Virus record (IMG/VR): IMGVR_UViG_3300032224_000591
Span: 103,757-167,756 of that record
Direction: 5' to 3' (one strand)
From: a virus
Length of the DNA stretch: 64,000 nucleotides
Shown one piece after another: positions 12,157 to 47,750 of the stretch. Positions within the stretch are counted from its first letter, which is position 1. Every line of letters begins with the position of its first letter. The notes below the pieces were generated by a model, which saw nothing but the letters and a program-made list of their open reading frames with translations, searched no databases and was not told where the DNA came from. Position numbers and translations under genes: made by a program.

Positions 12157-12226
12157 ATAAACACATGAACGCATCGTTATGAAATCCTGATGATTGGTAA
12201 TCCTCAATTTCATAACGGAGTTTCAG

Positions 12227-14053
12227 ATGAAGAGATTTTTAGTAGCCCTAATTGGGCTATGCGCATTTACGTGTGCAGCCGTAGCACAGAACCTACCAGC
12301 CGGTTCGTTAGGAATCGTCAATAACAATACGCCAAACACATGGCAGACATTTACCTACTCGTTCACACCATCGACAACAGGTGCTAATTTCGTAGGTTTT
12401 GCATTTCGTCAGGATCCAGCATTCTGGACTTTCGACAATGTCAGACTAACAGCAGCTGGTTCATCAACCAACCTGCTAACTAACGGTGCCTTTGATACAG
12501 GCGGACAGTTCAGTGTAACAACCACTAACGGTCCTTCCTCTATGCAGGCACCAACTAATTGGGGCGTATGGTATCAAAATGGAACATATCCTGCTGCCGC
12601 TGGCACTTGGACTAACGTTGGGGGGACTCATGGTGGCGTATGGTATGACGGAGCTGTTGGCTCGTTCGACGGTATCTATCAAGGCGTGGCTCTCCAGGCG
12701 GGCACCACTTACACAATTTCTTTTGAAGTTAGCGGGAATCACGCTGCTGACAATGGTGCTGTTCAGCTTGGCATTTATGGCGGCGCTTGCGCAACTGTAA
12801 GTATTGCACCTAATCAGTGCACGATCCCACCATCCGCCGGATTCACTACGCTTGCTACACCTGCTCAAGGTGCAGCTGCTGGTGGACCTGCAGTTCCTAC
12901 TATCGTAAGTGAATTGCCTGGAACTCCTAGTGTATCATCATCTAGCGCCCCTGGCACATTAGTAACCACAACAGCAAGCACAAGAGGCACTTCAACAACG
13001 GCAATCGCCCGTTCAGATGCTGCTGCTAGATCCGTTAACAATATCAATATAACAAGAACTACTGTGACCACAGTTACGACGCCGGTCACAACTGTTACCA
13101 CGCGTACAACTCCTATCGTCACAACGACAACGACTATACCTAGAACAGTCACAACGTGGAGCGATGGTACCACAACGACAACTGATGGAACACCGGTTGT
13201 CACACGCACAACAACCAATCAGATTGTCACATCATCAGCAATAGCTAACGATGTACAGTCGACAACGGGAACACAATCACAGTCTGTTAGCTCTAATGGT
13301 GCTAAGAGTGCTGTGTCTTATCGTAACAATAATCCATTCATTGTCGACACACTAAGTCAGAAAGATGGTGCATGGATCAGTCCATCGGCTAGCTACTACA
13401 AGTCAGTAGGTAGCATGTCATCAGGTGGCATCGCTGCTGGTTATCAATGGACTGTTGAGAATAACACGTTCGGTACTGCATTTGCATACAACAGTGCAAA
13501 GAGTGGTGGACTAGTTGGATCTGATGTTCAAGCTGTCACCTACGATGGTGTTGCATATGCACTTAGCAAGCAGGATGGTGTTTGGTTCAAGGGAACCATT
13601 GGCTATGGTTATGGTGACTACACAACCAACACATCGATCCCACTATTTGCCCTGTACAATACGGGTAAGATGAAGCAAAAGTCATACGTAGCTGACCTGA
13701 CTCTTTACAGTGCAGCAGACTACATAGGCTTCCGTCCACTGATTGGCGCTACGATCAATAAGAGCCAGATTGAGGCTTCTGCTGCTGGTAGTCCACTATT
13801 AGACACTACGGGTGACATCAAGTCTACAACTACGGTAAATCCATATGTAGGTGCTAGATATGACTTCACAGATAGTGTGGGTATCGAGATGAGAGCCACA
13901 CAGACTAAGGACTTCAAAACAGTCGGTGGAATCCGCGCTGTTGCCAAGACTGAGCTGTTTGATGGTGTGTTCCTGAATGCTACGGTAGGACTAGATAAGG
14001 GAACAGGCTATCAAGCAGCCTCCGGAACACTAGGTATCAAGGTCGCCTTTTAA
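12227..14053 (+). CDS. Autotransporter-like outer-membrane protein with Thr-rich stalk
   Basis: Signal peptide, beta-rich N domain, T/V/P-rich linker, amphipathic C-terminal barrel ending GIKVAF. Confidence 0.7.
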   Translation: MKRFLVALIGLCAFTCAAVAQNLPAGSLGIVNNNTPNTWQTFTYSFTPSTTGANFVGFAFRQDPAFWTFDNVRLTAAGSSTNLLTNGAFDTGGQFSVTTTNGPSSMQAPTNWGVWYQNGTYPAAAGTWTNVGGTHGGVWYDGAVGSFDGIYQGVALQAGTTYTISFEVSGNHAADNGAVQLGIYGGACATVSIAPNQCTIPPSAGFTTLATPAQGAAAGGPAVPTIVSELPGTPSVSSSSAPGTLVTTTASTRGTSTTAIARSDAAARSVNNINITRTTVTTVTTPVTTVTTRTTPIVTTTTTIPRTVTTWSDGTTTTTDGTPVVTRTTTNQIVTSSAIANDVQSTTGTQSQSVSSNGAKSAVSYRNNNPFIVDTLSQKDGAWISPSASYYKSVGSMSSGGIAAGYQWTVENNTFGTAFAYNSAKSGGLVGSDVQAVTYDGVAYALSKQDGVWFKGTIGYGYGDYTTNTSIPLFALYNTGKMKQKSYVADLTLYSAADYIGFRPLIGATINKSQIEASAAGSPLLDTTGDIKSTTTVNPYVGARYDFTDSVGIEMRATQTKDFKTVGGIRAVAKTELFDGVFLNATVGLDKGTGYQAASGTLGIKVAF

Positions 14054-14107
14054 GGTGTACAAACTCTCTCCATCGTGGTATAATACTTAAATGATGGAGA
14101 GAGACAC

Positions 14108-14338
14108 ATGACTGAAGTTATCCAGTTCCCACTGCAATCTAGAGATGCTACGATTATCCAGGGAGTAGCAACTCAGCGGCCTTATAACAAGGCTAAGTAC
14201 GTTGCCCTCATCGAGAGGTTCTTGACTGAGGATGATTTCGATTTTGTGATGAGAGCCATTGAGGAACCATTCCTCTATGCTGCTCTTGAGCCTCAACTGC
14301 AAAAGATCGTTGACTGTTACTTTAGTTACGATTCTTGA
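14108..14338 (+). CDS. Hypothetical protein
   Basis: Early promoter 14056, GGAG RBS, VIQFP N-terminus. Confidence 0.7.
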   Translation: MTEVIQFPLQSRDATIIQGVATQRPYNKAKYVALIERFLTEDDFDFVMRAIEEPFLYAALEPQLQKIVDCYFSYDS

Positions 14339-14340
14339 TG

Positions 14341-14348
14341 TATAAATA
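14341..14348 (+). promoter_or_regulatory. T4-type late promoter TATAAATA
   Basis: Exact copies also at 605, 8864, 20216, 29603, 42368, 61784; variants at 4401, 12152, 29757, 33176, 37241. Confidence 0.85.
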
Positions 14349-14374
14349 AACTTACGAACACGCAAAGGTGCACC

Positions 14375-14503
14375 ATGACTAAGCAGATTACACATCGTAA
14401 TCCAGTTGCTAAGGCTCTGAAGAGCCAGTCTTGCCGTGCGCGTGTGGTCGCTGCTAAACGCGGCAAGGGTTCCTACAAACGTCAGAGCTTCAAAAAGTTC
14501 TGA
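14375..14503 (+). CDS. arfA: ArfA-like alternative ribosome-rescue factor, 42 aa (not in ORF track)
   Basis: MTKQITHRNPVAKALKSQSCRARVVAAKRGKGSYKRQSFKKF; ArfA signature R.RV...K.GKGSY.R; AAGGT RBS; late promoter. Confidence 0.8.
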   Translation: MTKQITHRNPVAKALKSQSCRARVVAAKRGKGSYKRQSFKKF

Positions 14504-14509
14504 GGTCAC

Positions 14510-14586
14510 GGATCCTTAGCTCAGTAGGTTAGAGCAGCGGTCTTTTAAACCGACGGTCCCGGGTTCGAATCCCGGAGGATCCACCA
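14510..14586 (+). tRNA. tRNA-Lys(TTT)
   Basis: Cloverleaf, CCA. Confidence 0.95.
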
Positions 14587-14731
14587 TTATTCTTATTCAA
14601 AGTTTTATATCATGTGCAATCTACGTGACTTTATTATGGTAGTGATTATGTGCAACTTGATTGCAATCTTAGCATCTTGTGTTATAATTGCATTGAGTTA
14701 TTGGAATTAGAAACAAACAAGGAGCAATAAA

Positions 14732-15283
14732 ATGCAAAAGACTATCATTACGGCGCTTGTTCTTCTTGCGTCGACAGCAGTGGCTTCGGCTACTGATCTG
14801 CCAAGCAAGACGAAGGCACCGTCTCTACCCACTCTAGCTCAGTCAACAGACTTCTACGCTGGTGTGAATGCAGGCGGTAACTTCAACGATGCACGCGTCT
14901 ATTCTGGTGGTGCTGTTGCTGGCTGGAACGTCCTACCGTTCCTCGCAGTAGAAGGTACATACGACTTTTCTGTTCCACAGAATAAGATCAAGGGTGATTA
15001 CAACTACCAGAATACGGTTGCTGTAAACGCTGTACCGCAGTACAAGGTTCCCGCTCTTCCAGTCACTGTCTATGCACTAGGCGGCGCTGGCTATCGCTGG
15101 AACACTGCAGCTACCGTAGCGGATATTTCCGTTTATAACTTCGGTGCTGGTGCTAAGTATGAGTTTGCTAAGGGGATCGAAATCGATGGTCGCTACCGTC
15201 GTATTGATGCCATTGAGTCAAAGAACCGTACTTCGACTTCGGCCGAAGATCGTGCTACGATTGGTGTGAACGCAAAGTTCTAA
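14732..15283 (+). CDS. Omp25/RopB-like 8-stranded outer-membrane beta-barrel
   Basis: Signal peptide then ATDLPSKTKAP, FYAGVNAG, C-terminal IGVNAKF. Confidence 0.85.
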   Translation: MQKTIITALVLLASTAVASATDLPSKTKAPSLPTLAQSTDFYAGVNAGGNFNDARVYSGGAVAGWNVLPFLAVEGTYDFSVPQNKIKGDYNYQNTVAVNAVPQYKVPALPVTVYALGGAGYRWNTAATVADISVYNFGAGAKYEFAKGIEIDGRYRRIDAIESKNRTSTSAEDRATIGVNAKF

Positions 15284-15293
15284 TCTAGTACTA

Positions 15294-15331
15294 AGCTCAG
15301 GCGCAGTGATCACAGATACTGCGCCTGAGTT
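15294..15331 (+). terminator. Hairpin after OMP gene, probable terminator
   Basis: CTCAGGCGCAGT...ACTGCGCCTGAG. Confidence 0.6.
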
Positions 15332-15403
15332 GTATGCAAATAGCAGTGTACAAACCTGACCGGCGTGATATAATATACTAATGAATAAGACGAGGTTAAC
15401 ACT

Positions 15404-15760
15404 ATGAATGATTTCAACACAGCACTGACTAAAAACTATACGAAGTTGTCGCTCATCACGGTAGCTTCATTATCGAGTACCCTTGGTCTTCGTACCGAGT
15501 TAGCTATCATCCTGAATGATATGGCCATGGCTACGTGGATCTCTATCATGTGGGTTTTTATCATCATCGCCGTCTTGGCCTACTACAAGTCTAAAGCTGA
15601 TGTTGAGTTGGAAAAGTTTCGCGAGGGCGAGAAAAATCGCATCTTGATGGGTCTAAAACCACTCTCCACGTATACATACACAGGCCAGTCTGAACAGGTG
15701 ATTGGCAAGGAAACATTGGATCGCCTAAACTCAGTGGATACTAAAGTTAGGGAGAAGTGA
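15404..15760 (+). CDS. Membrane protein, hypothetical
   Basis: Early promoter 15347; hydrophobic segment. Confidence 0.7.
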   Translation: MNDFNTALTKNYTKLSLITVASLSSTLGLRTELAIILNDMAMATWISIMWVFIIIAVLAYYKSKADVELEKFREGEKNRILMGLKPLSTYTYTGQSEQVIGKETLDRLNSVDTKVREK

Positions 15761-45418: not shown

Positions 45419-45675
45419 TGAAAGCGCTAATCCTTCTACTCATGTCTACAACATTCGCCTTTGCTGGCAACTCTGTCACTGTGACCTCAACGGGGAATCG
45501 TCAAAATGTTACTATTACTCAGTCTGGCGGGAATCATTCTACTAATCTCAATCTGGTCGGGAATGATGTTTCCGTTATCGCAACCCAGTCTGGTTCTGTT
45601 TCTAAATCTTTCAGCATTGATATTAATTGTGGCAGCACTTGTCCTACTAGTCCCTATACCATCGACCAATACTGA
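45415..45675 (+). CDS. Small secreted curlin-like protein
   Basis: Signal peptide; NVTITQSGGNH, ATQSG. Confidence 0.7.
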   Translation: MMKALILLLMSTTFAFAGNSVTVTSTGNRQNVTITQSGGNHSTNLNLVGNDVSVIATQSGSVSKSFSIDINCGSTCPTSPYTIDQY

Positions 45676-47750
45676 TGGAAACAATAGGAAAATATCTAAC
45701 TGGCACTTGGGCAGCTGTTATCAGCGTCTGTCTCCTGTTGACATTGTTTGTAATCAATCCAGGGTTTATGCAAACCCTACAGCTAAAGACATTTGACTAT
45801 CTAATCACATCGCTTGAGCAGAAGAAGTCTGATGAGATTGTCATAGTCAATATAGGTGAAAAGTCTGTTGAGAAGTTTGGTCAGTGGCCATTCAACAGAT
45901 CCGATCTATCAACTATTATCGAGAAGCTAAGAGATAATGGTGCCGGCGTCATAGCAGCACCTATACTGTTTTCAGAGAAAGATAGAGCTGGAGGCGATGA
46001 TGATTTTGCAAAGGTTCTCGATGGTGTGGTCCTCGCACAAATCCCAACTATTCAGAATAGTAAACCTGATTCGGTCCGCCGTGGTTTTTCTGCTATTGGG
46101 CCTATTAATCCTAGTACTAGTGTCTACGGTTGGCCTGGTGGATTACGCCCTCTTGATAAGTTCTCCGAAAATGCCTCAGGCGTTGGTGTGGTCGCAACAG
46201 TTCCTGAATTGGACGGTGTGGTTCGTCGTATTCCTTTACTGGTCAATATTGCATCTGGTCTTTATCCAAGCTTTCCTTTGGAAACCATTCGTGTCGCTGC
46301 TGGAGATATTAGTTTCCAAGTTAAAACAAATGATGAGGGCATTGAGGCGGTTAGAATCCCACAGTTCCCTGCTATATCGACCGACACACGAGGACGCATC
46401 TGGCTAGCATGGAACAATAAGTTCGAAACCCTAGAAGCATCCGAAATTGATGATAGGGTCAAAGATAAAGTAGTTGTACTTGGGCTTACGATTGAAGGTG
46501 TCGGTGGTATTATAGCCACACCAATCGGTGAAAAATGGGCGCACGAAATTCAAGCTCAGGCTCTCCAGACTCTTGTTGATGGTACTTCTATCTCTCGCCT
46601 ATCCGTAGCAAAACTATTAGAAGGAACATTACTAGCATTGCTACTAATGCTACTTCTGTATATAGTTCCAAGACTGACTGTAAGTTTGACAGTTCCATTT
46701 TACGCCCTCTGTATTGCATGCATATCATATGGATCCTATTACTTATTTAAGACACAACTTCAGTTATGGGATCCAAGCTATATCATATTGGCAACAACTG
46801 CTGTATATGGTCATCTTGTATTCAATAACTTTGCCCGTGAGTTCAGACTTAAGCAGCAGATTAAGAAGCAGTTTGGTACGTACCTATCACCAGCACTTGT
46901 TGAGAAGCTTCAGAAGAACCCTGAGCTACTACGTCTTGGTGGTGAAACACGAGAGCTATCGATTATGTTCACGGACGTCCGTGGCTTTACTACTATTAGT
47001 GAGCATTATGGCAGTGATGTTCAGGGTCTGACAAAGATCATGAATCGCTATATGACAGCGATGACTGCAAAGATTATTCAGAATGAAGGTACACTAGACA
47101 AGTATATTGGTGATGCTCAGATGGCTTTCTGGAATGCGCCATTAGATGATAAAGAACACGCTAAACATGCAGTTAAAACAGCATTGGAGATGTTGGATGA
47201 CCTCAAAAGATTTAACACCGAGATTTTGGCTGAAGGTGTGCCTCCCTTTGGTATGGGTCTTGGCATTAACACAGGTAGTGTCGTTGTGGGGAACATGGGA
47301 TCTTCTCAGCGTTTTGATTACACCTGTCTTGGCGATACTGTTAACTTGGCAAGTCGTTTGGAAGGACAGAGTAAACCGTACCATGTAAAGATGGTTATCG
47401 GTCCACTCACATACCAATATGTGAAGGACGAGTATCTATGCCTAGAGCTTGATTGCCTTGCAGTTAAGGGTAAGAGCGAGGGTGTTAAGATCTATACGAT
47501 CGTTAACAAGAATGCTATCAACAATGCCTACTCAAAGACACATGCTGACTTCCTACAACACTATCGCGATATGAACTGGGAGAAAGCACTTGAGTACATA
47601 CCCTACCTTGATAGTGCTTTCGAAGGCGATATGACCGAGTACTACCATATGATGGTAGAGAGAATTGAAGAGTATAAGAAGACACCACCTGGTGTATGGT
47701 ATGATGGGGAGCAGATCTGGGATGGTGTCTTTAGAACAAACAGCAAATAA
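45675..47750 (+). CDS. CHASE2-domain class III adenylate cyclase
   Basis: GQWPFNR, DGVVRRIP (CHASE2); 3 TM; FTDVRGFT, DKYIGDA, YTCLGDTVNLASRLE. Confidence 0.95.
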   Translation: METIGKYLTGTWAAVISVCLLLTLFVINPGFMQTLQLKTFDYLITSLEQKKSDEIVIVNIGEKSVEKFGQWPFNRSDLSTIIEKLRDNGAGVIAAPILFSEKDRAGGDDDFAKVLDGVVLAQIPTIQNSKPDSVRRGFSAIGPINPSTSVYGWPGGLRPLDKFSENASGVGVVATVPELDGVVRRIPLLVNIASGLYPSFPLETIRVAAGDISFQVKTNDEGIEAVRIPQFPAISTDTRGRIWLAWNNKFETLEASEIDDRVKDKVVVLGLTIEGVGGIIATPIGEKWAHEIQAQALQTLVDGTSISRLSVAKLLEGTLLALLLMLLLYIVPRLTVSLTVPFYALCIACISYGSYYLFKTQLQLWDPSYIILATTAVYGHLVFNNFAREFRLKQQIKKQFGTYLSPALVEKLQKNPELLRLGGETRELSIMFTDVRGFTTISEHYGSDVQGLTKIMNRYMTAMTAKIIQNEGTLDKYIGDAQMAFWNAPLDDKEHAKHAVKTALEMLDDLKRFNTEILAEGVPPFGMGLGINTGSVVVGNMGSSQRFDYTCLGDTVNLASRLEGQSKPYHVKMVIGPLTYQYVKDEYLCLELDCLAVKGKSEGVKIYTIVNKNAINNAYSKTHADFLQHYRDMNWEKALEYIPYLDSAFEGDMTEYYHMMVERIEEYKKTPPGVWYDGEQIWDGVFRTNSK

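Follow-up and report, generated by a model that had tools for sequence, protein, structure and literature searches.

A short open reading frame placed directly ahead of a tRNA-Lys gene in a phage genome raises the question of whether it encodes a ribosome rescue factor of the ArfA family, and, if it does, how such a peptide would be made and what it might contribute during infection. To our knowledge ArfA has been described as a gammaproteobacterial and in some cases betaproteobacterial factor, always made from non-stop mRNA, and so appearing only upon failure of tmRNA.

We analysed a window of 64,000 nucleotides at the end of a 167,756-bp virus record that carries direct terminal repeats (IMG/VR record IMGVR_UViG_3300032224_000591, positions 103,757 to 167,756). 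The window carries T4-like genes for a family B DNA polymerase (~47% identity to cyanomyophage ones), a DnaB-type helicase and ribonucleotide reductase, as well as 31 tRNA genes (ARAGORN), and the arfA-like gene sits inside the tRNA island. The source is a 168-kb T4-like lake phage that probably infects an alphaproteobacterium; a megablast search with the 4 kb around the arfA-like gene found no match among GenBank phages. Elsewhere in the window, at 45675-47750, lies a CHASE2-domain adenylate/guanylate cyclase (PF05226 and PF00211), a kind of signalling gene that is unusual among T4-like phages.

Anatomy and conservation of the gene

The features of the locus are as follows.

14056..14084, + strand: sigma-70-like promoter match, TGTACA-17-TATAAT with TG, from a consensus scan, ahead of the 76-aa ORF
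14108..14338, + strand: 76-aa ORF directly upstream of the arfA-like gene, with an ORF of 75-78 aa in the same place in relatives
14341..14348, + strand: T4-type late-promoter motif TATAAATA, 26 nt before the arfA-like ATG
14365..14370, + strand: Shine-Dalgarno sequence AAGGTG, read directly from the sequence, 4 nt upstream of the arfA-like ATG
14375..14503, + strand: arfA-like ORF of 42 aa, ATG start, TGA stop at 14501-14503
14479..14506, + strand: predicted RNA hairpin, 11 pairs, -13.5 kcal/mol, z -5.1, with the stop codon in its 3' arm, ending 3 nt before the tRNA
14510-14586, + strand: tRNA-Lys(UUU) with encoded CCA, called by ARAGORN, 6 nt past the arfA-like stop

The first-pass annotation had pointed to a 42-aa ORF with its own stop 6 nt before tRNA-Lys, and the coordinates, the TGA and the ARAGORN tRNA all agree with that description. 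The encoded protein, MTKQITHRNPVAKALKSQSCRARVVAAKRGKGSYKRQSFKKF, contains 13 lysine and arginine residues and not a single aspartate or glutamate, giving it a pI of ~11.9. At least 24 contigs of separate metagenomic origin encode the identical 42-aa protein, its gene flanked each time by the 76-aa ORF and an outer-membrane beta-barrel gene, and five variants of 83-93% identity all retain exactly 42 codons, a Shine-Dalgarno sequence (AGGTG or GGAGTG in relatives), the TGA stop, and a tRNA-Lys(UUU) 6-7 nt downstream. Comparison with the 88%-identical relatives gave a dN/dS of 0.10-0.13, from ~14 synonymous and 9 non-synonymous differences. Given the recurrence of the identical protein, the conserved anatomy, and a dN/dS close to 0.1, the 42-codon ORF is a real gene under purifying selection, and not a chance ORF.

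A 140-aa ORF on the opposite strand (14087-14509) was considered as a gene and rejected, as it is interrupted in every relative. The 76-aa upstream ORF, which had no Pfam or PHROG matches, may be co-transcribed with the arfA-like gene. Outer-membrane-type genes lie on both sides of the arfA-tRNA unit, one at 12194-14053 encoding a 619-aa, Thr-rich product and the other at 14732-15283 encoding a 183-aa OMP beta-barrel (PF13505, E 1.2e-10), the latter with a sigma-70-like promoter match upstream at 14661-14688.

Membership of the ArfA family

As a single sequence the 42-aa protein scores 25.3 bits against PF03889 (E 1.1e-5), 0.2 bits short of the gathering cut-off of 25.5, and in a six-frame search the locus scores 23.6 bits. 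The single 42-aa sequence had no match in NCBIfam, and its PHROGs matches were weak and all to families of unknown function. Its 88% relative P0002 and many other clade members do score over the PF03889 cut-off. A single-sequence search of the PDB reached ArfA only at E 0.6; the top matches there were artificial alpha-repeat proteins matching the stretch NPVAKALK, which we rejected as repeat-driven noise.

The clade profile improved on this result. The underlying alignment (A3) comprises the window protein and 29 diverse viral relatives drawn from a pattern scan of IMG/VR, in which relatives were present on at least 214 viral contigs. All 29 relatives match PF03889, with a best E of 6.5e-12, and when the A3 profile was run against all PDB sequences it retrieved E. 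coli ArfA chains only (E 1.5e-7 to 3.5e-7), the next match lying at E 0.4. The profile-ArfA alignment spans 32 columns without gaps, with the shared pattern N..L..P.(aromatic)R.RV.K.KKGKGSY.RK; the profile consensus over those columns is NPiAKeLrtpkyrprvVKpKKGKGSYkRkkkk, and the E. coli ArfA counterpart starts NAIE[A18T]. In 1.84 billion representative proteins, the same profile matched 1065 clusters (50% identity) at E <= 0.001.

Taken together, these matches support well the assignment of the 42-aa protein as an ArfA homologue, which is how the first-pass annotation had read it. The HMM comparison with the ArfA family that it had named as a check turned out positive for the clade profile and the relatives, and marginally below the cut-off for the sequence by itself. 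Its description of the gene as hidden is only partly right, since gene callers and JGI already call the protein or its relatives ArfA: the protein database assigns PF03889 to the window protein and its relatives, and the JGI name for one of them is 'stalled ribosome alternative rescue factor ArfA'. An alternative is that the tRNA leader happens to contain a small ORF whose KGKGSY-like motif arose by accident. The very short length and the single-sequence Pfam score just below the curated cut-off would suit this reading, but it has next to no probability, being already contradicted by the low dN/dS and the conservation of length, start, Shine-Dalgarno sequence and stop, and also by the more than 1000 related clusters and the profile match to E. 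coli ArfA.

The short form and its distribution

The first-pass annotation had further described the protein as pre-truncated, lacking the C-terminal control region of E. coli ArfA. The window protein does have its own stop and no hydrophobic tail, and a scan for a terminator-like site at the locus found none. However, this architecture is not special to the phage. Most of 69 delimited viral ORFs stop 4-20 residues past GKGS[YF], with a minority carrying hydrophobic tails, and among 185,579 species genomes that were scanned 194 matches were confirmed, the best 80 of which come almost all from Pelagibacteraceae (SAR11). The SAR11 ORFs among these best 80 are 35-49 aa long and end with their own stops (e.g. 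L153:2001-2120, L136:1983-2120 and L109:1992-2099), share the same core motif with a tail of ~5 residues after GKGSF, and score over the PF03889 cut-off, which makes them the nearest cellular counterpart that we found. They differ from the window gene in being cellular, with 35-57% identity to the window protein, in having no adjacent tRNA, and in lying amid housekeeping genes, their neighbours being ordinary chromosomal genes such as those for a PfkB kinase, endonuclease III and an L,D-transpeptidase. On sequence grounds, then, the short stop-bearing form is the norm of a clade of more than 1000 clusters that includes SAR11 chromosomal genes, and not a phage-specific truncation.

Across an even sample of alphaproteobacterial genomes, 17 of 401 had a match, and the control genome of Caulobacter vibrioides had no PF03889 match. 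A published survey with nucleotide HMMs recorded arfA in 0 of 2,376 Alphaproteobacteria (PMC11633108). The clade is also present in cultured phages of Caulobacter (Cr30), Ochrobactrum, Erythrobacter, Roseobacter and Pelagibacter.

The branch therefore departs from both of the rules by which ArfA has been described, in that its members are short, mostly end with their own stop, and occur mainly in phages of Alphaproteobacteria and on SAR11 chromosomes. If these peptides recruit RF2, many phages would equip hosts that for the most part have no such pathway with an unregulated route of rescue, accompanied by tRNAs and in some cases a tmRNA, and abundant ocean bacteria would possess an overlooked back-up rescue factor.

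Two ideas about how the clade might be regulated or distributed were examined and set aside. Feedback by RF2 through the TGA stop was rejected because TGA is not enriched, being used in 39% of phage genes of the clade against a background of 31%, and in 12% of the SAR11 genes against 27%. A distribution complementary to that of ArfB was likewise rejected, as five SAR11-type carriers have RF1 and RF2 only, without ArfB, and five small non-carriers are identical in this respect, so that the comparison does not discriminate.

Putative promoters, linkage to tRNA-Lys, and a predicted hairpin over the stop codon

The TATAAATA motif upstream of the arfA-like gene bears on when the gene is expressed. 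In the four 88% copies that were checked the TAAATA box is retained at the same position, as ATAAATA or CTAAATA. Exact copies of the motif number 16 in the genome, and three of them lie 29, 45 and 21 nt before the genes for head scaffold, tail sheath and head closure, respectively. Given that the same octamer precedes these three structural genes, it is reasonable to read TATAAATA as a late promoter of the phage, and the first-pass proposal that the arfA-like gene is under such a promoter is plausible. The sigma-70-like match at 14056..14084 is a possible candidate for an early or host-polymerase route into the arfA-tRNA unit.

In 6 of the 6 relatives examined (L009-L012, L017 and L018) tRNA-Lys lies 6-7 nt past the stop; no tRNA is nearby at 61 of the 69 viral clade loci. 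The 6-nt gap in the window is too small for a promoter, and thus the tRNA-Lys precursor must contain the arfA-like ORF, which is transcribed whenever the tRNA is.

The predicted hairpin is made from the last 25 nt of the ORF and the spacer. In the 88% relatives this stretch carries five substitutions and is still predicted to fold (-9.3 kcal/mol, z -3.2), with one compensatory change, G-C to A-U. In the pair count, 92.7% of cells were paired. The covariation was not significant, as 49 of 500 shuffles reached the observed score, in a comparison of two lineages only that has low power. The hallmarks of non-stop synthesis are not seen at this end of the gene: the in-frame TGA is conserved, there is no terminator-like site, and the hairpin spans the stop codon itself.

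These observations bear directly on whether the peptide is made by normal termination, as we favour, or conditionally. In the conditional case exonuclease trimming, or cleavage of the hairpin, would follow RNase P processing and leave a non-stop mRNA, whose peptide product would receive a tag from tmRNA of host or phage and accumulate only if trans-translation were saturated, reproducing the logic of E. coli arfA by way of a tRNA and not an RNase III site. The constant position of tRNA-Lys in the relatives is consistent with this, as is a hairpin over the stop codon, the control element of E. coli arfA being likewise a hairpin (PMC8012679). Moreover, tmRNA still works on mRNAs that extend as far as 9 nt beyond the P site, precisely the length of the stop codon and the 6 nt after it, and the phage has a tmRNA of its own. 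On the other hand, there would be no call for a conserved TGA stop in an mRNA destined to lose it, a hairpin with 3 nt beyond it is a classic barrier to 3' exonucleases, and an 11-pair stem is short for RNase III. Most clade members, the SAR11 genes included, also have plain stops and no adjacent tRNA. We consider conditional synthesis unlikely and prefer normal termination.

A broader proposal, speculative and to our minds improbable, is that the ORF, the stop-codon hairpin and tRNA-Lys(UUU) form a single processing unit. RNase P would set the mRNA's 3' end at 6-7 nt past the stop, tying the supply of rescue factor to the maturation of tRNA-Lys, and the message would be either protected and translated normally, or non-stop and subject to the phage tmRNA, according to whether the hairpin survives, possibly as a response to nucleases that attack tRNA-Lys. 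Were this so, the unit would do through a tRNA what the RNase III switch does for E. coli arfA.

Residues retained and replaced relative to E. coli ArfA

We numbered the alignment from the A18T residue in chain 5mdw_6, such that residue n of the window protein corresponds to residue n+5 of E. coli ArfA. E. coli ArfA (YhdL; PF03889; PDB 5MDV, 5MDW, 5MGP, 5H5U, 5U4I and 7OJ0) and the window protein are homologous over ~32 gapless residues, from the helix-starting Asn through Leu20, the RF2-pairing R-x-R-V strand and K-[KR]-G-K-G-S-Y to a basic tail. The conserved E. coli positions are N14, L20, R26, R28, V29, K33 to Y39, which include the KGKGSY motif, and R41. In the window protein the motif reads R29-G-K-G-S-Y34 and is followed by the basic tail KRQSFKKF.

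The two proteins differ in length and at both ends. E. coli ArfA is encoded by a 72-codon gene from which a ~55-aa peptide is made off non-stop mRNA, whereas the window protein has 42 aa and its own stop, is missing the first 5 residues, and has no hydrophobic C-terminal extension. Its last residue is equivalent to E. coli residue 47. A version of E. coli ArfA cut to residues 1-40 has no activity, cryo-EM structures of ribosome complexes show order for only 46-48 residues, and residues past ~55 serve regulation only (PMC8012679). An end at residue 47 is therefore compatible with activity, judged by this alignment.

The RF2-recruiting beta-strand of E. coli ArfA (Q27-E30) aligns with A22-R23-V24-V25, and its R-V is conserved clade-wide. 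In contrast, A18, L19, P23, L24, F25 and K44-H45 of E. coli ArfA are not conserved in the window protein. The RF2-activating minidomain is not kept, I11, A18, L19 and L24 aligning with T6, K13, A14 and S19, respectively. P23 is replaced by Q18, where most of the clade has P, and F25 by C20, where four close relatives have F and either Y or F predominates in the clade; the tail pocket motif K44-H45 is absent. In E. coli ArfA the A18T substitution alone abolishes RF2 activation, and L19, L24 and F25 contact Trp319 of the RF2 switch loop (PMC5378476). The clade has in place of the minidomain residues its own invariant N-terminal motif, N-P-x-A, and for this reason we class the protein with a divergent short ArfA-family clade and not with ArfA of the E. 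coli type. Of the two halves of the protein, the one for ribosome binding and RF2 docking thus appears to be retained, and the activating one is different. Because these N-terminal activating residues are not conserved, we place no more than moderate confidence in a rescue function.

The same division between the two halves of the protein invites a different reading, in which an ArfA-derived inhibitor or modulator would sit in the vacant A site and mRNA channel without activating RF2, so as to block host tmRNA-SmpB or ArfB, or to park ribosomes. The channel-binding half is well conserved and the RF2-activating N-terminal core is not, and the window protein has a lysine at the A18 position, where A18T ends activation but spares binding and RF2 recruitment (PMC5378476). 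However, the NPxAK motif and this lysine are also found in the SAR11 chromosomal genes amid housekeeping genes, where an inhibitor of rescue would be implausible, and the RF2-pairing strand R-V-V is conserved. The invariance of N, P and A in the N-terminal motif suggests instead a working, co-adapted N-terminal fold, and a blockade of tmRNA sits uneasily with a phage that has a tmRNA itself. We regard inhibition as quite unlikely, and retain rescue as the preferred function.

tmRNA in the same phage and a proposed mechanism

Both ArfA and tmRNA act on stalled ribosomes, with different requirements: ArfA leaves its products untagged and needs RF2 only, and tmRNA needs SmpB, EF-Tu and charging and marks its products for degradation. 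Outside the window, at genome position 15208-15595, lies the phage's own tmRNA gene, of the alpha-type two-piece form (RF01849, 106.7 bits), and this type points to an alphaproteobacterial host. The phage genome contains no gene for SmpB, a release factor, ArfB or Pth; lacking SmpB, release factor and Pth genes, the phage must use the factors of its host. With a tmRNA of the phage's own, the first-pass suggestion that the peptide could bypass trans-translation is doubtful, and from its gene content the phage would appear to supplement both rescue routes and replace neither. Erythrobacter phage vB_EliS-L02 likewise has a tmRNA together with an unannotated ArfA-like ORF, and no tmRNA was found in Cr30, vB_OspM_OC or CRP-212.

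The explanation that we consider best, and hold with moderate confidence, is that the gene encodes a short ArfA-family ribosome-rescue factor that is made with normal termination and depends on RF2. Like E. coli ArfA the window protein is small, very basic and without a catalytic domain, and a release factor is therefore required. On a ribosome that has run to the 3' end of a broken mRNA and stalled there, the basic C-terminal part, KRGKGSYKRQSFKKF, would bind by inserting into the vacant mRNA channel. The preceding RVV strand would pair with the beta-sheet of host RF2, and RF2 would then hydrolyse the peptidyl-tRNA without a stop codon, freeing the ribosome.

As for its synthesis, the gene would be co-transcribed as part of the 5' leader of tRNA-Lys(UUU), probably from the late TATAAATA promoter and perhaps from the upstream sigma-70-like one, and the timing of expression would follow from these. 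Cleavage by RNase P at the 5' end of the tRNA would define the mRNA's 3' end, leaving a message that retains its stop and bears a 3'-terminal hairpin. Translation would terminate normally, the peptide would escape the tmRNA tag, and, unlike E. coli ArfA, it would accumulate with or without working trans-translation; it is in this sense that we infer constitutive activity, along with the use of RF2. The peptide would then supplement the host rescue factors and the phage tmRNA late in infection, when decay of mRNA leaves many ribosomes stranded.

A more specific purpose can be imagined for the pairing of the two genes. It is known that tRNA-Lys is a target of PrrC- and PARIS-type nucleases and that phage tRNAs can overcome such nucleases. 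The arfA-like gene and tRNA-Lys(UUU) could then be a counter-defence cassette against host anticodon nucleases, supplying a replacement tRNA along with a factor that clears ribosomes stalled at Lys codons. The linkage to tRNA-Lys(UUU) is indeed tight and conserved, and a second viral clade (L023, L028 and L038) also has tRNA-Lys genes, 0.3-1.4 kb downstream. But ArfA acts only after cleavage of the mRNA at the site of the stall, and the host has no known nuclease of this kind; the window holds 31 tRNAs, so that lying next to one may simply reflect position, and the large majority of viral clade loci (61 of 69) have no tRNA nearby. We therefore judge a counter-defence role to be very unlikely, while noting that it concerns the purpose of the locus and is compatible with an RF2-dependent rescue factor made by normal termination.

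Relation to known rescue systems and annotated phage genes

The phage that carries the window gene probably infects an alphaproteobacterium, and the survey cited above found no arfA in that class (PMC11633108). Phage genes have been annotated as ArfA before, in pelagiphage HTVC027P (gp30; PMC12753301) and Citromicrobium phage vB_CbaS-RXM (g10; PMC8953757), and p093 of Ochrobactrum phage vB_OspM_OC is called ArfA in a GenBank note. All three are phages of Alphaproteobacteria, as is probable for the window phage, and tblastn with the window protein gave matches in HTVC027P and vB_OspM_OC. In alignment, vB_OspM_OC p093 has the NPxAK...KGKGS[YA] core in common with the window protein, but at 65 aa it keeps a hydrophobic C-terminal extension like that of E. 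coli ArfA, which the window protein is without; no adjacent tRNA was found at the vB_OspM_OC locus. Transcripts of HTVC027P gp30 appear both early and late in infection (PMC12753301), in agreement with the two promoter types at the window gene.

BrfA of Bacillus and ArfT of Francisella are small basic proteins that sense the empty mRNA channel and recruit a release factor (PMC8012679), which is what we propose for the window protein. No sequence relationship between them and the window protein was detected, and they were absent from the matches of every search that we ran.

In the literature searched there was no functional study of, or experiment on, any member of the clade, and no paper on the short stop-bearing branch or on its presence in SAR11. 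For the window alone the gene is one more member of a group known from annotation, in databases and in three phages, and the advance is incremental.

Several further ArfA-like ORFs came to light in the course of the comparison. The GenBank records of Cr30 (L013/L072:1447-1599) and Erythrobacter phage vB_EliS-L02 (L016:1447-1617) contain such an ORF without annotation. In Roseobacter phage CRP-212 (MZ892988.1) a clear 41-aa ArfA-like ORF (L014:1495-1620) lies in another frame within the 3' part of the 3.6-kb gp38, and gp38 is thus either over-called or overlapping with an ArfA-like gene.

The ArfA-like module also occurs in longer proteins. On viral contigs it is N-terminal or internal in proteins of 136-163 aa (L033:1501-1929, L052, L061, L093-L096:1381-1791, L044 and L049), which have a conserved C-terminal stretch, NKAGNYTKPTMRKRLF...GQWSARKAQ; a Pfam search with the C-terminal extensions of longer family members found no domain. 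The second viral clade mentioned above (L023, L028 and L038, from IMG/VR) is separate from that of the window protein and is recognized by the sequence MEESMKTRNPIARSL...; in L028 its ArfA-like ORF extends into a 171-aa protein.
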